Assembly (NCBI GenBank): GCA_963820065.1
Contig: CAWFYM010000013.1
Span: 5,835-69,834, forward strand
Source of the DNA: an uncultured Actinomycetota bacterium
GTDB lineage: Bacteria > Actinomycetota > Actinomycetes > DATJPE01
Reading direction: 5' to 3'
Length of the DNA: 64,000 bases
Of the stretch, positions 19,940-55,010 are shown one piece after another (position 1 is the stretch's first letter; every line of letters begins with the position of its first letter). The translations under genes and the position numbers were made by a program. Below the pieces are notes generated by a model. The model saw only the letters and a program-made list of their open reading frames with translations. It was not told where the DNA came from and made no database searches.

Positions 19940-19981
19940 GGGGCATCCATTGTCGTCGATGGCGTGTCGTCGTGTGGACGA

Positions 19982-20686
19982 TCAGGCGGGGCGAGCCGCT
20001 TCGACGAGCGCTTCGAACAGGCGCGGGTCGTCGGCGACCTCGGGGTGCCACAGCACGCCGACGGCGAACCGCTTTGTCGGGTCCTCGACCGCCTCGATGG
20101 TGTCGTCGTCGGCCCAGGCGGTCACGGTGAGGTTGCCCGCGGACTCGACGCCTTGATGGTGGTAGGACGCGACGTCGGCGCGGCTGCCGAGAAGCGAGCC
20201 GATGAGGGAGTCTTCGGCGATCCGTACGGGGTGGAGGTTGAACACTCCTACTTCGGCTCGGTGCTTCTCGTGGCCCACGACACGAGGCAGGTGCTGGTGA
20301 AGCGAGCCTCCCGCAGCGATCGCCATCAGCTGCATGCCACGACAGATGCCCAGCGTCGGGAGGTCACGGTCGAGCGCCGCGTCGAGCGCGGCCACCTCGC
20401 CGGCGTCCCGATCGGGTCGGACCCCGAGGGTCTCCGGCTCGGTGGCGGCGCCGTACAGCTCGGGTCCCAGGTCCGCACCTCCCGCCAGCAGCAACCCGTC
20501 GAGGGCACGGATCACTTCCGTCGCGTCGGCGGCGTTCGGCGGGACGATTACCACGGCGCCGCCGGCCTTCTCGACGGCCTCGACATAGGTGTAGGGAAGC
20601 AGCGCGGCCGGCATCTCCCAGGTTCCCCAGCGGGCTTGCTCGACGTAGCAGGTGATCCCGATCAGCGGGCGACGTCCCTCGGTCAT
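19982..20686 (-). CDS. gamma-glutamyl-gamma-aminobutyrate hydrolase family (class I glutamine amidotransferase-like)
   Basis: Start taken at MTEGRRPLIGITCY (ATG 20686) rather than the extended 20770. GICRGMQL nucleophile motif, HH...E C-terminal. Confidence 0.75.
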   Translation of the reverse strand: MTEGRRPLIGITCYVEQARWGTWEMPAALLPYTYVEAVEKAGGAVVIVPPNAADATEVIRALDGLLLAGGADLGPELYGAATEPETLGVRPDRDAGEVAALDAALDRDLPTLGICRGMQLMAIAAGGSLHQHLPRVVGHEKHRAEVGVFNLHPVRIAEDSLIGSLLGSRADVASYHHQGVESAGNLTVTAWADDDTIEAVEDPTKRFAVGVLWHPEVADDPRLFEALVEAARPA

Positions 20687-20724
20687 GGACCCAGTCTGAC
20701 ACCCGATTCGGCCGCCGTGATCCC

Positions 20725-20785
20725 GTTGATCTTGAGAGATGCACGCTGGATACGGCGTGTCGCCGTACATCTCTCAAGATCAACC
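20725..20785. repeat. 61-nt near-perfect palindromic element, copy 1 (GTTGATCTTGAGAGATGCACG...CGTACATCTCTCAAGATCAAC)
   Basis: 21-nt arms with one mismatch plus an inner TACGGCG/CGCCGTA stem. Intergenic between divergent genes (hydrolase and moeZ). A second copy is at 31596..31656. Confidence 0.8.
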
Positions 20786-20869
20786 GTCTGGGCGCGGGAG
20801 GCGGTGGCCTGGAACAGGGCGGTGCCTGGCAGCGTTGTAGCCACGGATGACGTCTGAAGTACGTCCCCG

Positions 20870-22075
20870 ATGAGTGTCCAAGAGTTCCGAGGAGCACCTG
20901 CCGTGTCGCTGCCACCCCTGGTCGAGCCCGCTGACGAGCTGACCGTCGATGAGGTCATGCGCTACAGCCGCCACCTGATCATCCCGGACGTCGGGATGAC
21001 CGGGCAGAAGCGGCTGAAGAACGCCAAGGTGCTGTGCGTCGGAGCCGGTGGGCTCGGCTCGCCCGCGCTCATGTACCTCGCCGCGGCCGGTGTCGGGACG
21101 CTCGGGATCGTCGAGTACGACACCGTCGACGAGTCCAACCTGCAACGCCAGATCATCCACGGGCAGTCCGACGTCGGGCGTTCCAAGGCGGAGTCAGCGC
21201 GCGACTCGGTGAAGGAGATCAACCCCTACGTCGACGTACGCCTGCACGAGGTGCGTCTGGACTCCGACAACGTGCTGGAGATCTTCGCGCAGTACGACTT
21301 GATCCTCGACGGCACCGACAACTTCGCCACGCGCTACCTGGTCAACGACGCGTGCGTCCTCCTCGGCAAGCCGTACGTCTGGGGCTCGATCTACCGGTTC
21401 GAAGGACAAGCCTCGGTGTTCTGGGCCGAGCACGGCCCGCAGTACCGCGACCTCTACCCCGAGCCACCGCCCCCGGGCATGGTGCCCAGCTGCGCTGAAG
21501 GCGGCGTGCTGGGTGTCTTGTGTGCGTCGATCGGATCGATCATGGTCACCGAGGCGATCAAGCTCATCACCGGGATCGGCGAGCCGCTGCTTGGCCGACT
21601 GATGGTCTACGACGCCCTGGAGATGACCTACCGGACGCTCAAGCTGCGCAAGGATCCGACCGGGGCGCCGGTGACCGGGCTCATCGACTACGACGCGTTC
21701 TGCGGGACGATCAGCGACGAGGCTGCTGAGGCGGCCAGGGAATCGACGATCAGCGTCCGCCAGCTCGAGGGAATGCTCGAGGCGCGCGACAAGGGCGAGA
21801 CCGATTTCCTCCTGGTGGACGTCCGCGAGCCGAACGAGGCCGAGATCGTGAGCATCCCCGGGGCGGTCCTCACCCCCAAGAACGAGTTCCTCATCGGCGA
21901 CGGGCTCAGCCACCTGCCCCAGGACAAGCCGGTGATCCTCTATTGCAAGGTCGGCAGCCGATCAGCCGAGGTGCTCGCCGTGCTCAAGGCCGCTGGTTTC
22001 TCCGACAGCCAGCACGTCGGAGGCGGCGTGCTCGCCTGGGTCAACCAGATCGACCCCAGCCAGCCCGTCTACTGA
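20870..22075 (+). CDS. moeZ: molybdopterin-synthase adenylyltransferase/sulfurtransferase MoeZ (ThiF-family E1 + rhodanese)
   Basis: 401 aa. ThiF/MoeB domain (VLCVGAGGLGSP), CxxC pairs, C-terminal rhodanese with catalytic CKVGSRS. Confidence 0.9.
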   Translation: MSVQEFRGAPAVSLPPLVEPADELTVDEVMRYSRHLIIPDVGMTGQKRLKNAKVLCVGAGGLGSPALMYLAAAGVGTLGIVEYDTVDESNLQRQIIHGQSDVGRSKAESARDSVKEINPYVDVRLHEVRLDSDNVLEIFAQYDLILDGTDNFATRYLVNDACVLLGKPYVWGSIYRFEGQASVFWAEHGPQYRDLYPEPPPPGMVPSCAEGGVLGVLCASIGSIMVTEAIKLITGIGEPLLGRLMVYDALEMTYRTLKLRKDPTGAPVTGLIDYDAFCGTISDEAAEAARESTISVRQLEGMLEARDKGETDFLLVDVREPNEAEIVSIPGAVLTPKNEFLIGDGLSHLPQDKPVILYCKVGSRSAEVLAVLKAAGFSDSQHVGGGVLAWVNQIDPSQPVY

Positions 22076-22077
22076 CC

Positions 22078-22151
22078 CAACCTCACCCACGACTCGCCGG
22101 CGATGGGCGCGCTCGACGCGTGACCTCGCCGGCGAGTCGTGGGTGAGGTTG
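22078..22151. terminator. long hairpin (25-bp perfect stem, 24-nt loop) between convergent genes; probable bidirectional terminator
   Basis: CAACCTCACCCACGACTCGCCGGCG ... CGCCGGCGAGTCGTGGGTGAGGTTG, directly after the moeZ stop and before the stop of the minus-strand membrane gene. Confidence 0.55.
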
Positions 22152-28000: not shown

Positions 28001-28305
28001 TCTACCAGGTCGCGGTCCGTGAGGGCGCCGTCGCCGACCTCGAGGGGCTCGATGACGCCGTCAGCGGCGGAGCCGAGCTCGTCCAGCTCCGTGCCGGCAG
28101 CAAGGGCGGTCGACCGAAGGTGCAGGGGCAGCCACCGCTAGCCGTCCACGAGGACGGCACCACCGACGTCGATCGCCACCTGGCCGAGGCCGTCCGCACC
28201 ATGACGGCGGAGGAGTTCCCGCCTACCCCCGGCGAGTCGTGCAGCTATTGCCAGTTCAAGGCGTCGTGCCCGGCGCGCGACGAAGGCCGGCAGGTGGTCC
28301 GGTGA
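25042..28305 (+). CDS. adnA: ATP-dependent helicase-nuclease subunit, AdnA-like (UvrD-like motor + C-terminal PD-(D/E)xK nuclease)
   Basis: Listed ORF 24922..28305 would overlap the MGMT gene by 65 nt; the in-frame ATG 25042 is preferred. Walker A GPGTGKTT, UvrD motifs, C-terminal RecB-like nuclease with CxxC...C cluster (SCSYCQFKASCP). Confidence 0.75.
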   Translation: MSSTPATAGPRRAASGRAPFRLVAETLPAVVPPTLDEAQEAVVRVVGTPGHGPLLVLAGPGTGKTTTLVEAVCARVASGTAPDRILTLTFSRRAASELRDRIAARLGRTVEAQSAWTFHAFAYALAGETRPSEDLGRPLRLLSGPEQDVVVRELLAGDRADGLREWPEELAVALGTRGFADEVRTLLARARGFGLEPPDLAQFAAEAGARADWRAAARFLEQYLEVLDQLGALDYAELVHRAVVHAESSSGRAALRARYDLVVVDEYQDTDPAQERLLSAIAGDGRDLVVVGDPDQSIYSFRGAEVRGLLDFRTRFLTGDGDPAGVASLRVSRRAGADLLAASRSVARRMPLAGGGLADALRQHRALAPAGGLPAGDVDVWTYPSPSAQLDAVADVLRRAHLDDGLPWSQMAVLVRSGVRSLPYLRRVLGASGVPVEVASDELPLAREPAVAPLLLALRVVAEPALLTQEAAADLLLSPLGGMEASGLRRLGRLLRDEERATSAAALPRPSAELVREVLAEPERLVALDDAIVGPASRLAALLAKAREVSLDGGSAYDVLWSLWDGTSLPRRLERASWAGGPAGRLADRDLDAVVALFEAASRFEDRTERRGVRTFLEELEAQQIPADTLAERALRGDAVRLLTAHRSKGLEWDLVVVIDVQEDGWPDLRRRGSLLEAEQLTSDGHAPPPAPAELLAEERRLFYVAVTRARRRLVVTAVDSPEDDGSRPSRFVAELGVPVVPVAERPRRPLTLTALVAELRATAADPSVDEPMRRAAAVRLARLASATSAEGTPLVPGAHPDHWWGLEDLTDPQHPLHPDGAPIRLSGSSLSGLLDCPLRWFLEHEAKAATARSTALGFGSVVHTIADDVAKGTSPAEIEPLMLLLDRVWDALAFEARWQSVRQRIEARKALERFLTWHTEDRGRRLVASEHPFTVSLAVGDREVVLRGSMDRVEVDRDGLVHVIDLKTGKSLPTGPKVAEHPQLGVYQVAVREGAVADLEGLDDAVSGGAELVQLRAGSKGGRPKVQGQPPLAVHEDGTTDVDRHLAEAVRTMTAEEFPPTPGESCSYCQFKASCPARDEGRQVVR

Positions 28306-31300
28306 CCCAGCTGTCGTTCCTTGACGCACCCGATCCAGGGCCGCCCATGACCCCGAGCTCCCTGCGCGAGCTCTTCGGTGTCCCGTTCACCGACCAACAG
28401 CTCGCCGCGATCACCGCGCCGCTCGAGCCCGGTGTCGTCATCGCCGGCGCCGGCTCCGGGAAGACCACCGTGATGGCCGCCCGGGTCGTGTGGCTGGTCG
28501 GCACCGGTGCCGTACGCCCCGAGGAGGTGCTGGGGCTCACGTTCACCAACAAAGCCGCGGCCGAGCTCGCCGTCCGCATCCGCACCGCCTTGGCGCTGCT
28601 GCCGTCGCCCAAGCCGACCGAGGCCTCGGGTGACCCAGCCTCCGACGCGCTGCCGGTCGACGGCGAGCCGACGGTCGCGACCTACCACGCCTACGCGGGA
28701 CGACTGCTGCGCGACCATGGACTGCGCATCGGCGTCGAGCCGGGGGCGCGGCTGCTCGCCGACGCGACGCGCTTCCAGCTCGCGGAGCGGGTGCTGCGGC
28801 GGGCCCCGGGTCCGTTCGACAGCCTCGACAAGACCGTGCCCTCTCTCGTCGGGGAGATCGTGGCGCTCGACAGCGAGCTGTCCGAGCATCTCGTCTCCAC
28901 CGTGAAGCTGCGAGTCCACGATGAGGCGCTGGTCCGCGAGATCGGCCGGGTCGCCAAGCCGGTCGCCGACGTGCTCAAGACCCGCGATGCAGCCCTCCAG
29001 CGGGGCGAGCTGGCGCAGGTGGTCGACCTGCTCCGTCAGGAGAAGGTCAGCCTCGGCGTGCTCGACTTCGGTGACCAGCTGGCGGAAGCCGTACGCCTGG
29101 TCCGCGAGCACCCGTCGGTGGCCGCCGCCGAGCGGCGGCGCTACAAGGTCGTGCTCCTCGACGAATACCAAGACACGTCGGTAGCCCAGATGGTCCTGCT
29201 CACATCGCTCTTCCGCGACGGCCACCCCGTCACCGCTGTCGGTGACCCGTGTCAGGCGATCTACGGCTGGCGCGGCGCCTCGGTCGGCAACATTGATGCC
29301 TTCCCCGACGACTTCCCCCAGACCGACGGGATGCCGGCGCGGCGCTTCGACCTCGCGCAGAACAACCGCAGCGGTGGCCTGCTCCTCAAGCTGGCCAACG
29401 CGCTGTCGGCCGACCTGCGGGCGAGGCACCCAGGTTTGCTCGAGCTCGCGCCAAGACCCGGCGTCGAGGCCGACGGCCGCACCGTGGTGGGCCTCTTCGA
29501 GCGGCAGGCCGACGAGGTCGAGTGGGTGGCCGATTCAGTCGCCCGCCAGCTGCAAGACCCGAACACCCGCCCCCGCGACATCGCGGTGCTCGTGCGGGTG
29601 CGCGCAGACTTCGCGCCCTACCACGACGCGCTGGTTGCCCGCGGGGTCCCGGTGGAGGTCGTCGGGCTCGGTGGGTTGCTCGCCCTCCCCGAGGTGGCCG
29701 ATCTCGTCGCGACCTTGGACGTCTTGATCGACGCGACGGCCAACACCTCGCTCGTACGGCTGCTGACCGGACCGCGGTGGCGCATCGGTCCGCGTGACCT
29801 CGTGCTGCTCGGTCGTCGCGCCGCCGACCTCGTACGCACCGGTCCGGGTGCCCCTGACCCCGACGACGCCGCTTCGGTTAACGAGGGCGCGGACGTCGAT
29901 GCGGTCGACGTCGAGCAGTTGCTCGAAGAGGCCGTGGCGGGTGTGGACCCGGCCGAGGTCGTGTCGCTCACCGAGGCGCTCGAGCGACCGGGCGGCGCGG
30001 CCTACTCGCCCGAGGCGCGCGGACGGTTCGCCCGTCTGGACGCCGAGCTGCGCGGCCTGCGCCGCCACGTCGGTGACCCGCTCCTCGACCTGCTCCACCG
30101 GGTGCTCGCCACGACGGGTCTCGAGGTCGAGGTGGGCGCCGCGCCCAACGCGCCGCGCACCCGCCGATCGGAGGCCCTGGCCTCGTTCCTCGACCACGCG
30201 GCGGCCTTCGCCGACCTCGACGGCGACGCCGGCGTCCGCGCGTTCCTCGCCTACCTGGCCGCGGCCGAGCGGTTCGAGCGGGGGCTCGACACGGCGGCGC
30301 CGACTTCCGGTGACACGGTCAAGCTGATGACCGTCCACAAGGCCAAAGGTCTCGAGTGGCCGATCGTCGTCGTGCCTGACGTGACTCGAGGGGTTTTCCC
30401 GTCGGGGCGCGGGCGGTCGTCCTGGATCACGAGCGGGTCCGCTCTGCCGACGGGGTTGCGCGGGGACGCGTCCGACTTCCCCCTCTCGCCCCAGTGGTCG
30501 ACCAAGGGGCTGGCCGCCTTCAAGGCAGAGATGAAGGCCCTCGACGAGCTCGAGGAGCGACGGCTGGCCTATGTGGCCTTGACCCGTGCGAAGGACACGC
30601 TTGTGGTGACCGGTCACTGGTGGGGTCCGACGCAGAAGCGGCGGCGCGGCCCGTCGCCCTTCCTCGAGGAGGTCCACGCCCACTGCCTGGCCGGCCACGG
30701 GACGGTCGCGGTGTGGACCGAGGCTCCCGAGGTTGAGGCCAACCCATGGCTCGCCGAGGCCGGCGGCGAGGGCTTCACCTGGCCGCTGCCTCTCGACGAG
30801 GATGCCTTGGCCGAGCGCCGCCACGCCCGCGACCTCGTCCTCACCTCCCTCGCCGAGCTCGAGGATCCTCGCGATCAGGGACGCTCCGTGCTTCCAGGCG
30901 CCGGCGGAGCAGGCGGTCCGGAGGTCGACGGGGAGCTGACGGCGGCCTGGGACCGAGATGCGGCCGCCCTTCTCGAGGAGGCCCGCACGCTGCACACGGC
31001 CGTTCACGACGTACCGGTGCCAGCCGCGCTCTCCGCGTCCTCGCTCGTACGCCTCGCGGCCGATCCCGACGGGCTGGCCCGCGCCCTGGCCCGACCGATG
31101 CCTCGACCTCCAGCTCCTGCAGCCCGGCGCGGCACGCGGTTCCACGGCTGGGTGGAGGGTTTGTTCGGCGAGCAACCGCTCCTCGATCGCAGCGACCTCG
31201 AGGGCGCAGCCGACGACGACCGCGTCGGCGATGCTGACCTCGAGTCGCTGCAGGCGGCCTTCCTCGCCGGCCCCTACGCCACGACACCCCCCCTCCGCGT

Positions 31301-31589
31301 CGAGGCACCGTTCCAGCTCGTGCTCGGCGGTCGCGTCGTCCGCGGCCGGATCGACGCGGTCTACCTTCGGCCCGACGGCGGCTACGACGTCATCGACTGG
31401 AAGACCGGCACGCAGTCGTCCGACCCGCTCCAGCTCGCCGTCTACCGCGCCGCCTGGGCGCAGATCGCCCGGGTCCCGGAGTCAGTGGTCGGGGCAGCCT
31501 TCTACTACGTGGCCCGCGGGGAGATCGTGCGCCACGACGACCTCCCCGGCGTCGCCGAGCTCACCGCGCTCGTCAGCCGCGCCAGCTGA
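28302..31589 (+). CDS. adnB: ATP-dependent helicase-nuclease subunit, AdnB-like (UvrD/Rep helicase + RecB-family nuclease)
   Basis: GTG 28302 overlaps the adnA stop (GTGA). Canonical UvrD N-terminus FTDQQLAAITAP...AGAGSGKTTV, DEYQDT motif, C-terminal nuclease domain. Confidence 0.8.
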   Translation: MTQLSFLDAPDPGPPMTPSSLRELFGVPFTDQQLAAITAPLEPGVVIAGAGSGKTTVMAARVVWLVGTGAVRPEEVLGLTFTNKAAAELAVRIRTALALLPSPKPTEASGDPASDALPVDGEPTVATYHAYAGRLLRDHGLRIGVEPGARLLADATRFQLAERVLRRAPGPFDSLDKTVPSLVGEIVALDSELSEHLVSTVKLRVHDEALVREIGRVAKPVADVLKTRDAALQRGELAQVVDLLRQEKVSLGVLDFGDQLAEAVRLVREHPSVAAAERRRYKVVLLDEYQDTSVAQMVLLTSLFRDGHPVTAVGDPCQAIYGWRGASVGNIDAFPDDFPQTDGMPARRFDLAQNNRSGGLLLKLANALSADLRARHPGLLELAPRPGVEADGRTVVGLFERQADEVEWVADSVARQLQDPNTRPRDIAVLVRVRADFAPYHDALVARGVPVEVVGLGGLLALPEVADLVATLDVLIDATANTSLVRLLTGPRWRIGPRDLVLLGRRAADLVRTGPGAPDPDDAASVNEGADVDAVDVEQLLEEAVAGVDPAEVVSLTEALERPGGAAYSPEARGRFARLDAELRGLRRHVGDPLLDLLHRVLATTGLEVEVGAAPNAPRTRRSEALASFLDHAAAFADLDGDAGVRAFLAYLAAAERFERGLDTAAPTSGDTVKLMTVHKAKGLEWPIVVVPDVTRGVFPSGRGRSSWITSGSALPTGLRGDASDFPLSPQWSTKGLAAFKAEMKALDELEERRLAYVALTRAKDTLVVTGHWWGPTQKRRRGPSPFLEEVHAHCLAGHGTVAVWTEAPEVEANPWLAEAGGEGFTWPLPLDEDALAERRHARDLVLTSLAELEDPRDQGRSVLPGAGGAGGPEVDGELTAAWDRDAAALLEEARTLHTAVHDVPVPAALSASSLVRLAADPDGLARALARPMPRPPAPAARRGTRFHGWVEGLFGEQPLLDRSDLEGAADDDRVGDADLESLQAAFLAGPYATTPPLRVEAPFQLVLGGRVVRGRIDAVYLRPDGGYDVIDWKTGTQSSDPLQLAVYRAAWAQIARVPESVVGAAFYYVARGEIVRHDDLPGVAELTALVSRAS

Positions 31590-31595
31590 AATCGT

Positions 31596-31656
31596 GTTGA
31601 TCTTGAGAGATGCACGGTCTCGCACGGCGTGTCGTCGTGCATCTCTCACGATCAAC
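31596..31656. repeat. 61-nt palindromic element, copy 2 (GTTGATCTTGAGAGATGCACG...CGTGCATCTCTCACGATCAAC)
   Basis: Same family as 20725..20785. Lies 7 nt after the adnB stop and overlaps the last codons of the convergent EEP gene. Confidence 0.8.
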
Positions 31657-32539
31657 TCGCTGCGGGGTGGCGGGCCGTGGCGGCGTCGAGGTCGACGTCG
31701 ACCGCCAGGGCGCAGTGGTCGCTGATCCCCAGGCGCACCACGTGCTCGGCCCGCACGTCCTCGCTGCCGATGCCCAGACCGAGAATGTGGTCGAGCTGCA
31801 CACGCGGGCGATAGCTGGGGTACGTCGCTCCGCGTGCGAGTGACTCCCAGCCGGTGGCCAGCCGCGGCAAGGCTCCCGGCAGGTTGAAGTCCCCGAGCAG
31901 CAGGACCGGTTTCGGCATCCGGGCTACCCACTGCGCGACAGCTCTCAGCTGTCGCCAGTTGTAGCCGGGGACGAACGACAGGTGGCAGGTCACGGCGGTG
32001 AAGCTCCCGGCGGGACCGTCGATGAGGGCGGCCAGCGCGACGCGTGGCTCGTCCGGGATCCGCAGCAGGCGCGGCCGCGGCTCCTGGGGCACCAGCAGCG
32101 GCAGCGAGAACGGCGCTGGCTCAAAGCGGCGCACCCACCAGCGGCGCACCGGAAAGCGAGACACCATGCCGACTCCGTACGTCGCCCCGTCGGTCTCCCT
32201 CCCGTCGTCGGTGCTGGCGGGGGACCAGTCGGCCTCCACACCCGGGGTCCCGTGGATCGCGGGCACGAAGCGCCAGTGCGGGGTCTCCATGACAGCCGCC
32301 GCGACCTCGACCTGGTCGATCACGCCTGACCGCTCCTGGTGCCGGTCGACCTCCTGCAGGCCCAACAGGTCGGCCGACAGATCCTGGATCGCGGCCTCCA
32401 GTCCGTCGGAGTCGCCGACGCTCAACGAGGGCTCGGCGAGCCCAGGAACCGACGGCAGCGTCATCCCATGGAGAAGGTTGAACGTCGCCACCCGGGCGGC
32501 GCCGTCCGGGGCGGGGTCGATCGAGGCTCGGGCTGGCAT
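31652..32539 (-). CDS. endonuclease/exonuclease/phosphatase (EEP) family protein
   Basis: 295 aa; FNLLHG...GLQEVD N-terminal motif and C-terminal SDHCAL motif of the EEP fold. Confidence 0.75.
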   Translation of the reverse strand: MPARASIDPAPDGAARVATFNLLHGMTLPSVPGLAEPSLSVGDSDGLEAAIQDLSADLLGLQEVDRHQERSGVIDQVEVAAAVMETPHWRFVPAIHGTPGVEADWSPASTDDGRETDGATYGVGMVSRFPVRRWWVRRFEPAPFSLPLLVPQEPRPRLLRIPDEPRVALAALIDGPAGSFTAVTCHLSFVPGYNWRQLRAVAQWVARMPKPVLLLGDFNLPGALPRLATGWESLARGATYPSYRPRVQLDHILGLGIGSEDVRAEHVVRLGISDHCALAVDVDLDAATARHPAAS

Positions 32540-48912: not shown

Positions 48913-48989
48913 CGCGGGGTGGAGCAGCTCGGTAGCTCGCTGGGCTCATAACCCAGAGGTCGCAGGTTCAAATCCTGCCCCCGCTACCA
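48913..48989 (+). tRNA. initiator tRNA-fMet (anticodon CAT), CCA encoded
   Basis: CGCGGGGTGGAGCAGCTCGGTAGCTCGCTGGGCTCATAACCCAGAGGTCGCAGGTTCAAATCCTGCCCCCGCTACCA. Near-identical to E. coli tRNA-fMet as recalled, including the 1:72 mismatch and three G:C pairs in the anticodon stem. Confidence 0.85.
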
Positions 48990-54049: not shown

Positions 54050-55010
54050 TCTCATTTCACGGAAAGATGGGGAGTTCTGGCAACAGGGGAAGTACCCGGA
54101 GGGGCTTCGGGAGCGGGCGATCCGGTCCCCGGGCGAGGCGAGGCGTGATCCGGTGACGCGGATGGGGGCGTTCCGGCGGGTCTGTGAGCAGTTGGGTCAC
54201 CCCCGAGACGTTGCGTAACTCGATCCAGCAGCCGTAGATCGATGAGGGAGCCAGGGCGGGCACCGTGGGCGGTGATGCTGTGCGCATTGCGCAGTTGGAG
54301 CGGGACAACCGTGGAGCTGCGACGCGCGAACGCGATTTGAAGAGCGCTTCGGCCTTCTTCGCGGCGAGCTCGAACGCCGACAGCGGTGATCGTCGACTAC
54401 ATCGACGCCCACAAGGACACATTCGGGGTCGAGCCGATCTGCGCAGTGCTGCAGGTCGCCCCTAGCACCTACTACGCCCACCGGTCCCGGCCGCCGTCTG
54501 GCAGGTGGGTCAGCGACGCCGCAACGTCCGCGCGGATCGGCAACGTCCCCCTGTCAACTACTGGGTCTATCGGGCGCGGAAGGTCCCATCCGAGTTGAAC
54601 CGCTCGGGACATTCGGTGGCCCGTCACACGGTTGAGCGGTCGATGCGAACGGCTTGGCTGCGCTAGATCTCCCGGGCGAAGGGACCCCACACGACCGTTC
54701 CCGGGCTGGGTCCCGATCATCGCCTGGACCTCGTTGACCGCGACCGCAATAACCAGCTCTGGGTCACTGACATCACCGAGCACCCGACCCGAGAAGGGCA
54801 AGGTCTACTGCGCCGCGGTCCTGGACGCCTTCAGCCGCCGCGATCGTCGGCTGGTCCATCGACTCCCGACCAGGACACCACTCTGGTCATCAACGCCCTC
54901 GACATGGCCATCCGCAACCGACGCCGCGACCCCGGCGGCATCGTCCACGCCGATCACGGCGTCCACGGCGTCCACGGCGGATTCAATCAATCGTCCCAAC
55001 ACCTCGTGAT
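54050..55010 (+). mobile_element. IS3-family insertion sequence remnant (orfA/orfB, multiple frameshifts)
   Basis: OrfA-like KYPEGLRERAI..., ...TPETLRNSIQQP, AQLERDNR...LKSASAFFAA. OrfB-like IVDYIDAHKDTFGVEPICAVLQVAPSTYYAHRSRPPS, NQLWVTDITEHPTREGKVYCAAVLDAFSRR. Pieces are spread over all three frames. Confidence 0.6.

Follow-up and report, generated by a model that had tools for sequence, protein, structure and literature searches.

A palindromic repeat family of high-GC Actinomycetota and its association with a predicted winged-helix nuclease gene

Introduction

The closest known systems to the palindromes described here are the repetitive extragenic palindromes (REP), REP doublets forming hairpins (REPIN) and REP-associated tyrosine transposases (RAYT) of Proteobacteria, and the 'Tuberculosis Rho-independent terminator' (TRIT) motif of mycobacteria (PMC3152330). 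Our subject is two palindromes of about 60 nt in a 64,000-nt stretch of DNA (hereafter, the window) from an uncultured Actinomycetota bacterium (GenBank assembly GCA_963820065.1, contig CAWFYM010000013.1, positions 5,835 to 69,834 of the forward strand), the repeat family to which they belong, and a gene that is flanked by members of this family at other loci. The gene is predicted to encode an AbiEi-type winged helix-turn-helix (wHTH) fused to a nuclease. We consider it somewhat probable that the repeats and the gene form a pair of repeat and enzyme resembling REP/REPIN-RAYT, with an enzyme of a different class.

The palindromes share with REP/REPIN sequences a short, extragenic build, with two conserved inverted arms and a less conserved spacer that together form a long hairpin. 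In both systems the repeats are dispersed mostly at gene ends, solo copies are non-autonomous, the apparently low-copy cognate gene lies between inverted copies, in many cases at a conserved place in the chromosome, and the repeat sequence co-varies with the gene lineage. The logic is thus the same, whereas the enzyme class, the sequence tags and the phylum are different. The protein here has matches to AbiEi_4 and a DUF559/Vsr-like PD-(D/E)xK domain rather than being a Y1 HUH (IS200-like) transposase, the GTAG/CGTC tag is lacking and the ends read YK-GATC..., and the hosts are Actinomycetota rather than Proteobacteria. The copy number is apparently modest, with two copies in 64 kb here and no copy in the five 21-kb loci of relatives. 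The REPIN/RAYT literature that we found makes no mention of Actinobacteria.

TRIT was reported as restricted to Mycobacterium, and its authors also proposed a protein that reads the conserved duplex (Gardner et al. 2011, PMC3152330). Both TRIT and the present family are actinobacterial, sequence-conserved, bidirectional palindromes, with dozens to hundreds of copies, that lie at or over stop codons and have no canonical U-tract (PMC3152330). Neither an associated gene nor insertion polymorphism was reported for TRIT (PMC3152330), and the present hosts are non-mycobacterial metagenome-assembled genomes (MAGs). The asymmetric conserved loop of the present family is a further difference, as judged from the published description of TRIT.

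Results

Two stable hairpins in the window

The palindromes and their parts are as follows, with the strand of a copy set by the loop motif CGGCGTGTCG.

20725..20784, + strand: copy 1, a 60-nt palindrome (covariance model, 71.6 bits, E 2.6e-20)
20725..20745, + strand: left arm of copy 1, GTTGATCTTGAGAGATGCACG, 0 mismatches
20752..20762, + strand: conserved loop motif of copy 1, ACGGCGTGTCG
20764..20784, + strand: right arm of copy 1, CGTACATCTCTCAAGATCAAC, 1 mismatch to the reverse complement of the left arm
31596..31656, + strand: copy 2, a 61-nt palindrome (covariance model, 77.5 bits, E 3.4e-22)
31596..31616, + strand: left arm of copy 2
31624..31634, + strand: conserved loop motif of copy 2, ACGGCGTGTCG
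31636..31656, + strand: right arm of copy 2, CGTGCATCTCTCACGATCAAC, in which TCA at 31652-31654 is the stop codon of an endonuclease/exonuclease/phosphatase (EEP) gene on the minus strand

The arm GTTGATCTTGAGAGATGCACG was found at 20725-20745 (0 mismatches) and 31596-31616, and its reverse complement at 20764-20784 and 31636-31656 (1 mismatch each). These four matches at ≤3 mismatches compare with 0.00 expected from 100 shuffles of the window, so the two near-perfect palindromes with 21-nt arms noticed in a first-pass annotation of this DNA are real. It had given both as 61 nt long, which holds for copy 2 (31596-31656), whereas copy 1 is 60 nt and ends at 20784, not 20785. It had also described different central spacers and a variable loop, and both descriptions are too simple. 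The spacers, of 18 nt in copy 1 and 19 nt in copy 2, both hold ACGGCGTGTCG, a conserved asymmetric motif, together with an inner 7-bp hairpin that covaries between the copies (TACGGCG-tgt-CGCCGTA vs CACGGCG-tgt-CGTCGTG, with a compensatory T-A to C-G change). When the covariance model was run over the whole window with filters off, only these two copies were detected, and the next match scored 18.8 bits.

On either strand, both copies form hairpins of very high stability. As RNA, the folding energies were -41.7 (+) and -39.7 (-) kcal/mol for copy 1 (z about -5.7) and -41.2 and -36.6 kcal/mol for copy 2, which gives a range of -36.6 to -41.7 kcal/mol with z about -5.2 to -5.8 for both copies and strands. 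The DNA fold reached -25.1 kcal/mol with z about -6 (copy 1, z -5.9).

A chance or local duplication with no family behind it would agree with there being just two copies in the window. With zero matches expected and dozens of members elsewhere (see below), this explanation is refuted.

A possible decayed half-copy lies at 19955..19986 (+ strand), where GGCGTGTCGTCGTG, identical to 31626-31639 in the loop and inner stem of copy 2, is followed by a GATCA that supplies the stop codon of a peptidase C26 gene. About three chance occurrences are expected for a 9-mer within GGCGTGTCGTCGTG. With 14 identical nucleotides and a terminal GATCA where a gene ends, the stretch may be a remnant of the element, an assignment that we regard as uncertain.

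A dispersed repeat family with a covarying stem

A scan of one genome per species with the pattern TTGATCNTGAGAGATGNACG (TTGATC...NACG) returned four loci in three Actinomycetota MAGs, all of them palindromes of like build. A metagenome scan with a gapped two-arm pattern returned 33 soil contigs with GC contents of 0.67-0.76, and again all were palindromes with a shared anatomy. Once oriented, the family members align readily. The arm is 14 bp (GATCWTGAGAGATG / CATCTCTCAWGATC; consensus GATC(T/A)TGAGAGATG) and encloses an inner stem of 4-7 bp that is copy-specific yet complementary (CAGGG/CCCTG, GCGCG/CGCGC, CACGG/CCGTG, GGGTCGC/GCGACCC). The loop is asymmetric, and its 3' part is CGGCGTGTCG, followed by the complementary arm. 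Beyond GATC, the outer 2-3 bases are variable but complementary as well (CGC/GCG, CGT/ACG, GTT/AAC). Conservation is strongest inside the arms and the loop, not at the termini. The apex is fully palindromic in a few members (L040, L032; CGACAC-GGC-GTGTCG); most copies keep only its GTGTCG side, and therefore the element has a polarity.

The hairpin is backed by covariation in the alignment. Paired bases made up 87.9% of cells, compared with 77.9% in shuffles and 33-51% with slid partners, and 111 double-sided changes were counted where 49.6 were expected (0/500 shuffles as high). The covariation was concentrated at the inner stem (columns 25-29/48-52), at position 15/62 and at the 2-3 flanking pairs. 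Because GATC.TGAGAG / CTCTCA.GATC was imposed by the search pattern, the signal rests on the free positions, namely 15/62, the inner stem and the flanks.

The palindromes thus make up a dispersed repeat family in high-GC Actinomycetota whose presence varies among close relatives, and the window copies are solo members of it. The REP/MITE-like repeat family suggested in the first-pass annotation (MITE, miniature inverted-repeat transposable element) is borne out by copies at non-orthologous intergenic sites in many Actinomycetota genomes and metagenomes, and by the empty window sites in relatives. No Rfam family was matched at the gathering and E-value thresholds, with only sub-threshold hits to generic hairpins (miRNA precursors). 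A literature search with the arm sequence gave only unrelated primer matches, and no description of the family was found in the literature on actinobacterial palindromic repeats, MITEs, DUF559/AbiEi or REPIN. It is apparently a previously undescribed repeat family of soil actinobacteria.

BLAST of the consensus element against plasmids and phages gave no real match, and the marginal Azospirillum matches, when inspected, were due to chance. Scans of viral contigs with the gapped-arm pattern yielded chance matches and one unrelated palindrome. The latter, on viral contigs L006 (5374-5443) and L007 (4512-4581) with GC contents of 0.67-0.68, has the ends GGGATCATGAGAG...CTCTCATGATCCC and internal repeats of AGTAGGGATCATG, and has only GATCATGAGAG in common with the family.

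Another palindrome was observed in relatives of the window (L045 9109-9183, L046 9112-9186, L047 9089-9163), between the 3' ends of APH(6)-like and peptidase C26 genes. Its arms differ (GCTGAGGGTGACG / CGTCACCCTCAGC) and its apex is the same as that of the family, GCGACAC-GCG/GCC-GCGTGTCGC. Possibly a wider superfamily shares this apex as its functional core. On MAG contig CAWKHA010000004 (L003 4440-4485, 4541-4590), a copy is flanked by tandem repeats, with ccccccgctcgtt x3 upstream and ggcgcgggggg-like repeats downstream.

Arm-matched palindromes flank a winged-helix–nuclease gene

At loci L020 and L004, two elements ~1.1 kb apart bracket a gene of ~320 codons that lies between rodA and a radical-SAM gene. 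Five further loci were picked by homology to its protein alone, and not by element content; the percentages below are identities to the L020 protein.

L048/49: protein P0122, 66% to L020; rodA synteny; copies upstream and at the 3' end; arm GATCTTGAAAGATG
L050: protein P0127, 52% to L020; next to groES; copies upstream and at the 3' end; arm GATCTTGAGCATTG
L051: protein P0132, 49% to L020; rodA synteny; copy upstream and another 2.6 kb away, none at the 3' end; window-like arm GTTGATCTTGAGAGATCCACG
L052: protein P0179, 42% to L020, from a Catellatospora isolate; copy upstream, decayed copy at the 3' end; arm GATCATGAACTTATGG
L053: protein P0135, 46% to L020; after ppa; copy upstream, contig ends on the 3' side; arm GATCTTGAGCTTTT

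An upstream element was thus present ~80-150 nt from the gene in 7/7 loci, and a 3'-end element in 5/6 loci with sequence available. The presence of an element beside each of the five protein-selected genes is not a coincidence, because elements are seldom met in unselected DNA, with none in the 5 x 21 kb from relatives. The arms differ between gene lineages, with the variants GAGAGATG (L004, L020, L051), GAAAGATG (L048), GAGCATTG (L050), GAACTTATGG (L052) and GAGCTTTT (L053), and both copies around any one gene share the local variant. All variants have just GATCWTGA and the loop motif in common. In the flanking pairs, the conserved GTGTCG side of the loop points outward from the gene. Judged from the seven loci, the association of the palindromes with the wHTH-nuclease gene is specific and matched arm for arm.

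The genes adjoining it were rodA, radical SAM, groES and ppa, with no AbiEii toxin gene among them, and no match to Y1_Tnp was found in the protein of the flanked gene. One or two copies of a (TG)TCCACAG motif were observed between the upstream palindrome and the start of the gene (L048 2913-2948, L050 2918-2946, L051 2944-2950, L052 1431-1452, L053 2942-2950). The motif resembles the actinobacterial DnaA box, TTGTCCACA.

The associated protein

AbiEi-type winged helices bind inverted repeats and autoregulate. The L020/L004-type protein has weak matches to AbiEi_4 and MTES_1575, and its homologues bear the annotation AbiEi-domain, DUF559 or very-short-patch-repair-endonuclease protein. Among 50 homologues, Pfam matches were to AbiEi_4 in 43/50, MTES_1575 in 26/50 and DUF559 in 24/50, and the invariant residues include D176, E221, D254, E268, D270 and H275. 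The AlphaFold model is confident (mean pLDDT 92.3). Its top match among PDB structures by Foldseek was the AbiEi antitoxin 6y8q (E 1.6e-5), and the C-terminal domain had weak matches to PD-(D/E)xK structures, e.g., TnsA. A profile search of PDB sequences retrieved only the DUF559-type structure 3hrl, weakly (E 0.12). The protein is accordingly predicted, from these profile and model matches, to be an AbiEi-type winged helix fused to a DUF559/Vsr/MTES_1575-like PD-(D/E)xK nuclease. The family is large, with 3,102 representatives of 50%-identity clusters at E<=1e-30. No homologue was found in the window, tblastn gave no match on plasmids, and no viral relative was found.

Two known protein types are thus relevant. 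The N-terminal two thirds of the protein, a wHTH with an AbiEi-like fold, resembles the antitoxin AbiEi of type IV toxin-antitoxin systems, which binds inverted repeats upstream of its own gene. Unlike in those systems, there is no adjoining AbiEii gene, the C-terminal part has a nuclease fold with conserved catalytic residues, and the repeats are dispersed genome-wide. The C-terminal domain is like the DUF559/Vsr-like endonucleases in fitting the DUF559 and MTES_1575 profiles and in its SPLE...D...ExDG..H pattern. Neither repeat propagation nor palindrome recognition by DUF559 proteins was found in the literature searched. The binding site for a dimeric regulator that had been proposed for the window palindromes is in part supported by this, in that the family is tied to a gene of the AbiEi winged-helix type, but the protein is predicted to have a nuclease domain as well.

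Gene context and empty sites of the window copies

The genes next to the window copies are listed below.

19982..20686, - strand: peptidase C26 / class-I glutamine amidotransferase gene, with 38 nt between its start and copy 1
20870..22075, + strand: MoeZ-like adenylyltransferase/sulfurtransferase (ThiF+rhodanese) gene; database homologues start at 20903
28239..31589, + strand: gene for an AdnB-like UvrD helicase with a PD-(D/E)xK nuclease
31652..32539, - strand: EEP gene, its C-terminus inside copy 2

As had been noted in the first-pass annotation, copy 1 lies between divergent genes and copy 2 between the convergent adnB and EEP genes, overlapping the EEP stop codon. Copy 1 is within the divergent pepC26/moeZ control region, 85-118 nt upstream of the MoeZ-like gene (start at 20870 or 20903). 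A consensus scan of 20600-20950 found neither a sigma-70-like promoter nor a terminator-like site, which gives no support to the promoter element once suggested for copy 1. A comparison with operator motifs of actinobacteria (HAIR, CIRCE, SOS box and others) gave no match. Copy 2 begins 7 nt past the stop of adnB, and its terminal GATCAAC contains the stop codon of the EEP gene (31652-31654). No T-run follows either copy, and neither is a canonical intrinsic terminator, that is, a GC-rich hairpin with a U-tract. For both convergent transcripts, copy 2 is probably a 3'-end barrier or stabilizer that works without a U-tract.

The two sites were compared with five syntenic loci (L043-L047, ~21 kb each), in which MoeZ is 91-93% identical to that of the window; the closest named MoeZ relatives are from Nanopelagicales and Jiangella. 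In all five, the element is absent from both sites and from the rest of the 21 kb. The gene calls of L045-L047 are fragmented, with adnA/adnB and the lysyl-phosphatidylglycerol (PG) synthase gene split, and these loci look like frameshift-rich long-read assemblies, so that fine-scale comparisons with them call for caution. Copy 2 is missing at the adnB/EEP junction of L043-L046. The distance from the adnB stop to a conserved anchor is 120 nt in the window vs 60 nt in L043, and the surplus (~61 bases) is the element. In the relatives, the adnB and EEP genes overlap by 17 nt. The AdnB C-termini of the window and the relatives have the same length, and the EEP C-terminus in the window is 4-6 residues shorter than theirs and ends in the GTTGATC of the element. 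Insertion in the window lineage is the parsimonious explanation, because the adnB/EEP overlap is kept in two sub-groups of relatives. The pepC26/moeZ spacer of the relatives also lacks the element and is too diverged to place exact boundaries. The alignments with these loci show that both window copies were inserted in this lineage after its split from the nearest sequenced relatives, and that copy 2, by the same comparison, landed at the overlapping 3' ends of adnB and EEP and now supplies the EEP stop. One MAG contig carries two ~98% identical copies, with the centers and immediate flanks included, in opposite orientation at unrelated loci, and this near-identical pair is a further sign of what looks like recent copying.

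The first-pass annotation had held that only two copies, absent from relatives, would point to chance duplication. Both sites are indeed empty in relatives, but dozens of members exist elsewhere; the absence from the window sites reflects mobility and not chance, and the criterion was the wrong test.

An insertion polymorphism of this kind is also expected of an ordinary MITE, here a deletion derivative of a DDE insertion sequence with the arms as terminal inverted repeats and the nuclease gene as a cassette passenger. The elements share with MITEs and other small palindromic repeats (Correia, ERIC, RUP, BOX, RPE) that they are small, non-coding inverted-repeat insertions, polymorphic between relatives, that have terminal inverted repeats and can give stop codons and hairpins to neighboring genes. 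A gene between two copies would fit as well, and mobile insertion cassettes with passenger genes are known. The elements differ from these repeats in the absence of a target-site duplication or a DDE transposase relative, in a size (~60 nt) shorter than most, and in the stem covariation and conserved loop motif. No transposase adjoins any copy, the plasmid and phage collections gave no match, and no parent autonomous insertion sequence with these terminal repeats was found in the loci examined, plasmids or phages. Conservation peaking inside the arms and loop, not at the termini, and the same gene family flanked in 7/7 loci with lineage-specific arms are not expected for a MITE with a random passenger, to which we give little probability.

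Three further features were observed in the window. A perfect palindrome at 22078-22151 (26-nt arms, 22-nt center) fills the gap between the moeZ stop (22075) and the stop (22158) of a convergent lysyl-PG-synthase-like gene, a gap of only 58 nt in L043 and 24 nt in L044; it appears to represent a second, unrelated palindromic insertion family. Also unrelated to the palindromes are an ALIL pseudoknot, a frameshift element of IS3-family insertion sequences, at 54351-54463 and a tRNA gene at 48913-48986.

Family members lie mostly at gene 3' ends

Positions relative to genes were counted for 41 elements, with genes called by a crude method based on GC content at third codon positions (GC3). A gene 3' end was within 60 nt of 24/41 elements; 8 were clearly between convergent genes and 7 between tandem genes, and divergent starts were seen for only 1/41, copy 1 of the window. 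In five cases the stop codon of the neighbor is the TGA inside GATCTTGA. The neighbors at the MAG loci are unrelated, with elements downstream of a sarcosine-dehydrogenase-like gene, downstream of NAD-GDH, and in the interval between an mshD-like GNAT gene and ppk. The polarity of the loop motif had no bias relative to adjacent transcription (~3 sense vs 3-4 antisense in tandem contexts), and this lack of a preference for transcription direction argues against a strand-specific RNA function.

The flanks of the elements were observed to be skewed over 20-30 nt, often with G-runs (in the window, 20705-20724 / 20785-20804 and 31576-31595 / 31657-31676). The 5' 20 nt are C-rich and the 3' 20 nt G-rich, with skews of -0.27 / +0.37 vs about -0.1 at ordinary gene ends, which could be due to a target preference, a rut-like (Rho utilization) context or G-quadruplex potential. 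Insertion into pre-existing hairpins was considered and rejected, as the duplex energies of true flank pairs (-18.2 kcal/mol) were similar to those of mismatched ones (-17.95 kcal/mol; p=0.47), and specific pairing of the two flanks does not account for the skew either.

The strong lean to gene 3' ends and convergent pairs invites an explanation by a TRIT-like terminator or RNA 3'-end element, in which bidirectional hairpins are selected and read by a double-stranded RNA-binding factor, and mobility and the link to the gene are secondary. The high stability of the hairpins, whichever strand is folded (-37 to -42 kcal/mol, z about -5.5), the rut-like, C-rich 5' flank on either strand and the precedent of the mycobacterial motif (PMC3152330) agree with it. 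We nevertheless find it unlikely, since the U-tract is absent without any terminator-like match, the loop motif has no orientation preference, copy 1 is flanked by the starts of two divergent genes, close relatives have the same genes with no element at these sites, and the tight, arm-specific tie to one gene family is left unexplained. These observations fit a later co-option as terminator rather than a primary function.

The same counts bear on a regulon, with the wHTH protein as a transcription factor, the palindromes as its operators and the pair around its own gene for autoregulation. The binding habits of AbiEi-type winged helices and the structural match to 6y8q, the element ~80-150 nt upstream of the gene in 7/7 loci and the position of copy 1 in a divergent promoter region would all be accounted for. 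Operators are hardly expected, however, at gene 3' ends, over stops or between convergent genes, where most copies are, with 1/41 clearly divergent. The neighboring genes are without a common function, sites are gained and lost among close relatives, and invariant active-site residues of a nuclease are needless for a repressor. This reading is very unlikely in our view, and, like the ordinary MITE, it fits the positional and gene-association data poorly.

Discussion

The reading that we favor is a repeat-and-enzyme partnership, and the mobilization of the repeats by the nuclease is its most interesting part and an uncertain one. As we infer it by analogy, the winged helix would recognize the inverted arms in the way that AbiEi binds the inverted repeats of its own operator, and the nuclease domain would nick or cleave in or close to the hairpin or cruciform and the conserved GTGTCG side of its loop. 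Cleavage would then promote the copying, or the maintenance, of the palindromes. The outcome would be a partnership like that of REPIN and RAYT, with a nuclease in place of the HUH transposase.

Several points weigh against this partnership. The gene loci are not fully independent, as 4/7 share the rodA/radical-SAM synteny, and L051 is without a downstream copy. Neither the 64-kb window nor the loci of its relatives yielded the cognate gene; the most window-like arms are those of L051, a locus from the same sample as L043 and L044 whose origin in a related genome is only presumed. PD-(D/E)xK nucleases form no covalent intermediate, so full transposition chemistry is not evident. There is no target-site duplication at either window copy or at family members, whose flanks are complementary over 2-3 nt, and the exact ends of the element cannot be fixed because the intergenic DNA of the relatives is too diverged. 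The pattern of the genome scan is too narrow to give a copy number per genome, and the search pattern accounts in part for the invariance of GATC.TGAGAG / CTCTCA.GATC among the metagenome members. Finally, solo copies could be footprints of gene units deleted by recombination between the flanking palindromes. Such footprints, and likewise a later co-option of copies as terminators, as in TRIT, are each compatible with the partnership.

A wider proposal, which we put forward tentatively as possible rather than probable, is an unrecognized class in Actinomycetota in which an AbiEi-type winged helix with a Vsr/DUF559 PD-(D/E)xK nuclease, in place of an HUH (RAYT) or DDE transposase, recognizes its own lineage-specific palindrome and propagates or maintains a genome-wide population of it. 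If true, this would provide a function for a very large uncharacterized protein family (>3,000 clusters at 50% identity), and a testable one for the abundant AbiEi-domain and DUF559 proteins of Actinomycetota. It would possibly explain conserved TRIT-like 'terminators', and would offer a candidate for the long-suspected protein partner of the sequence-conserved, U-tract-less 'terminator' palindromes of high-GC bacteria. The elements rewrite gene 3' ends via stop codons and are useful markers of recent divergence among close MAGs. Repeats with a dedicated enzyme have so far been understood mainly through the proteobacterial REP/REPIN-RAYT, and an independent analogue in Actinobacteria, built around another catalytic fold, would mean more than one origin for this genomic lifestyle.

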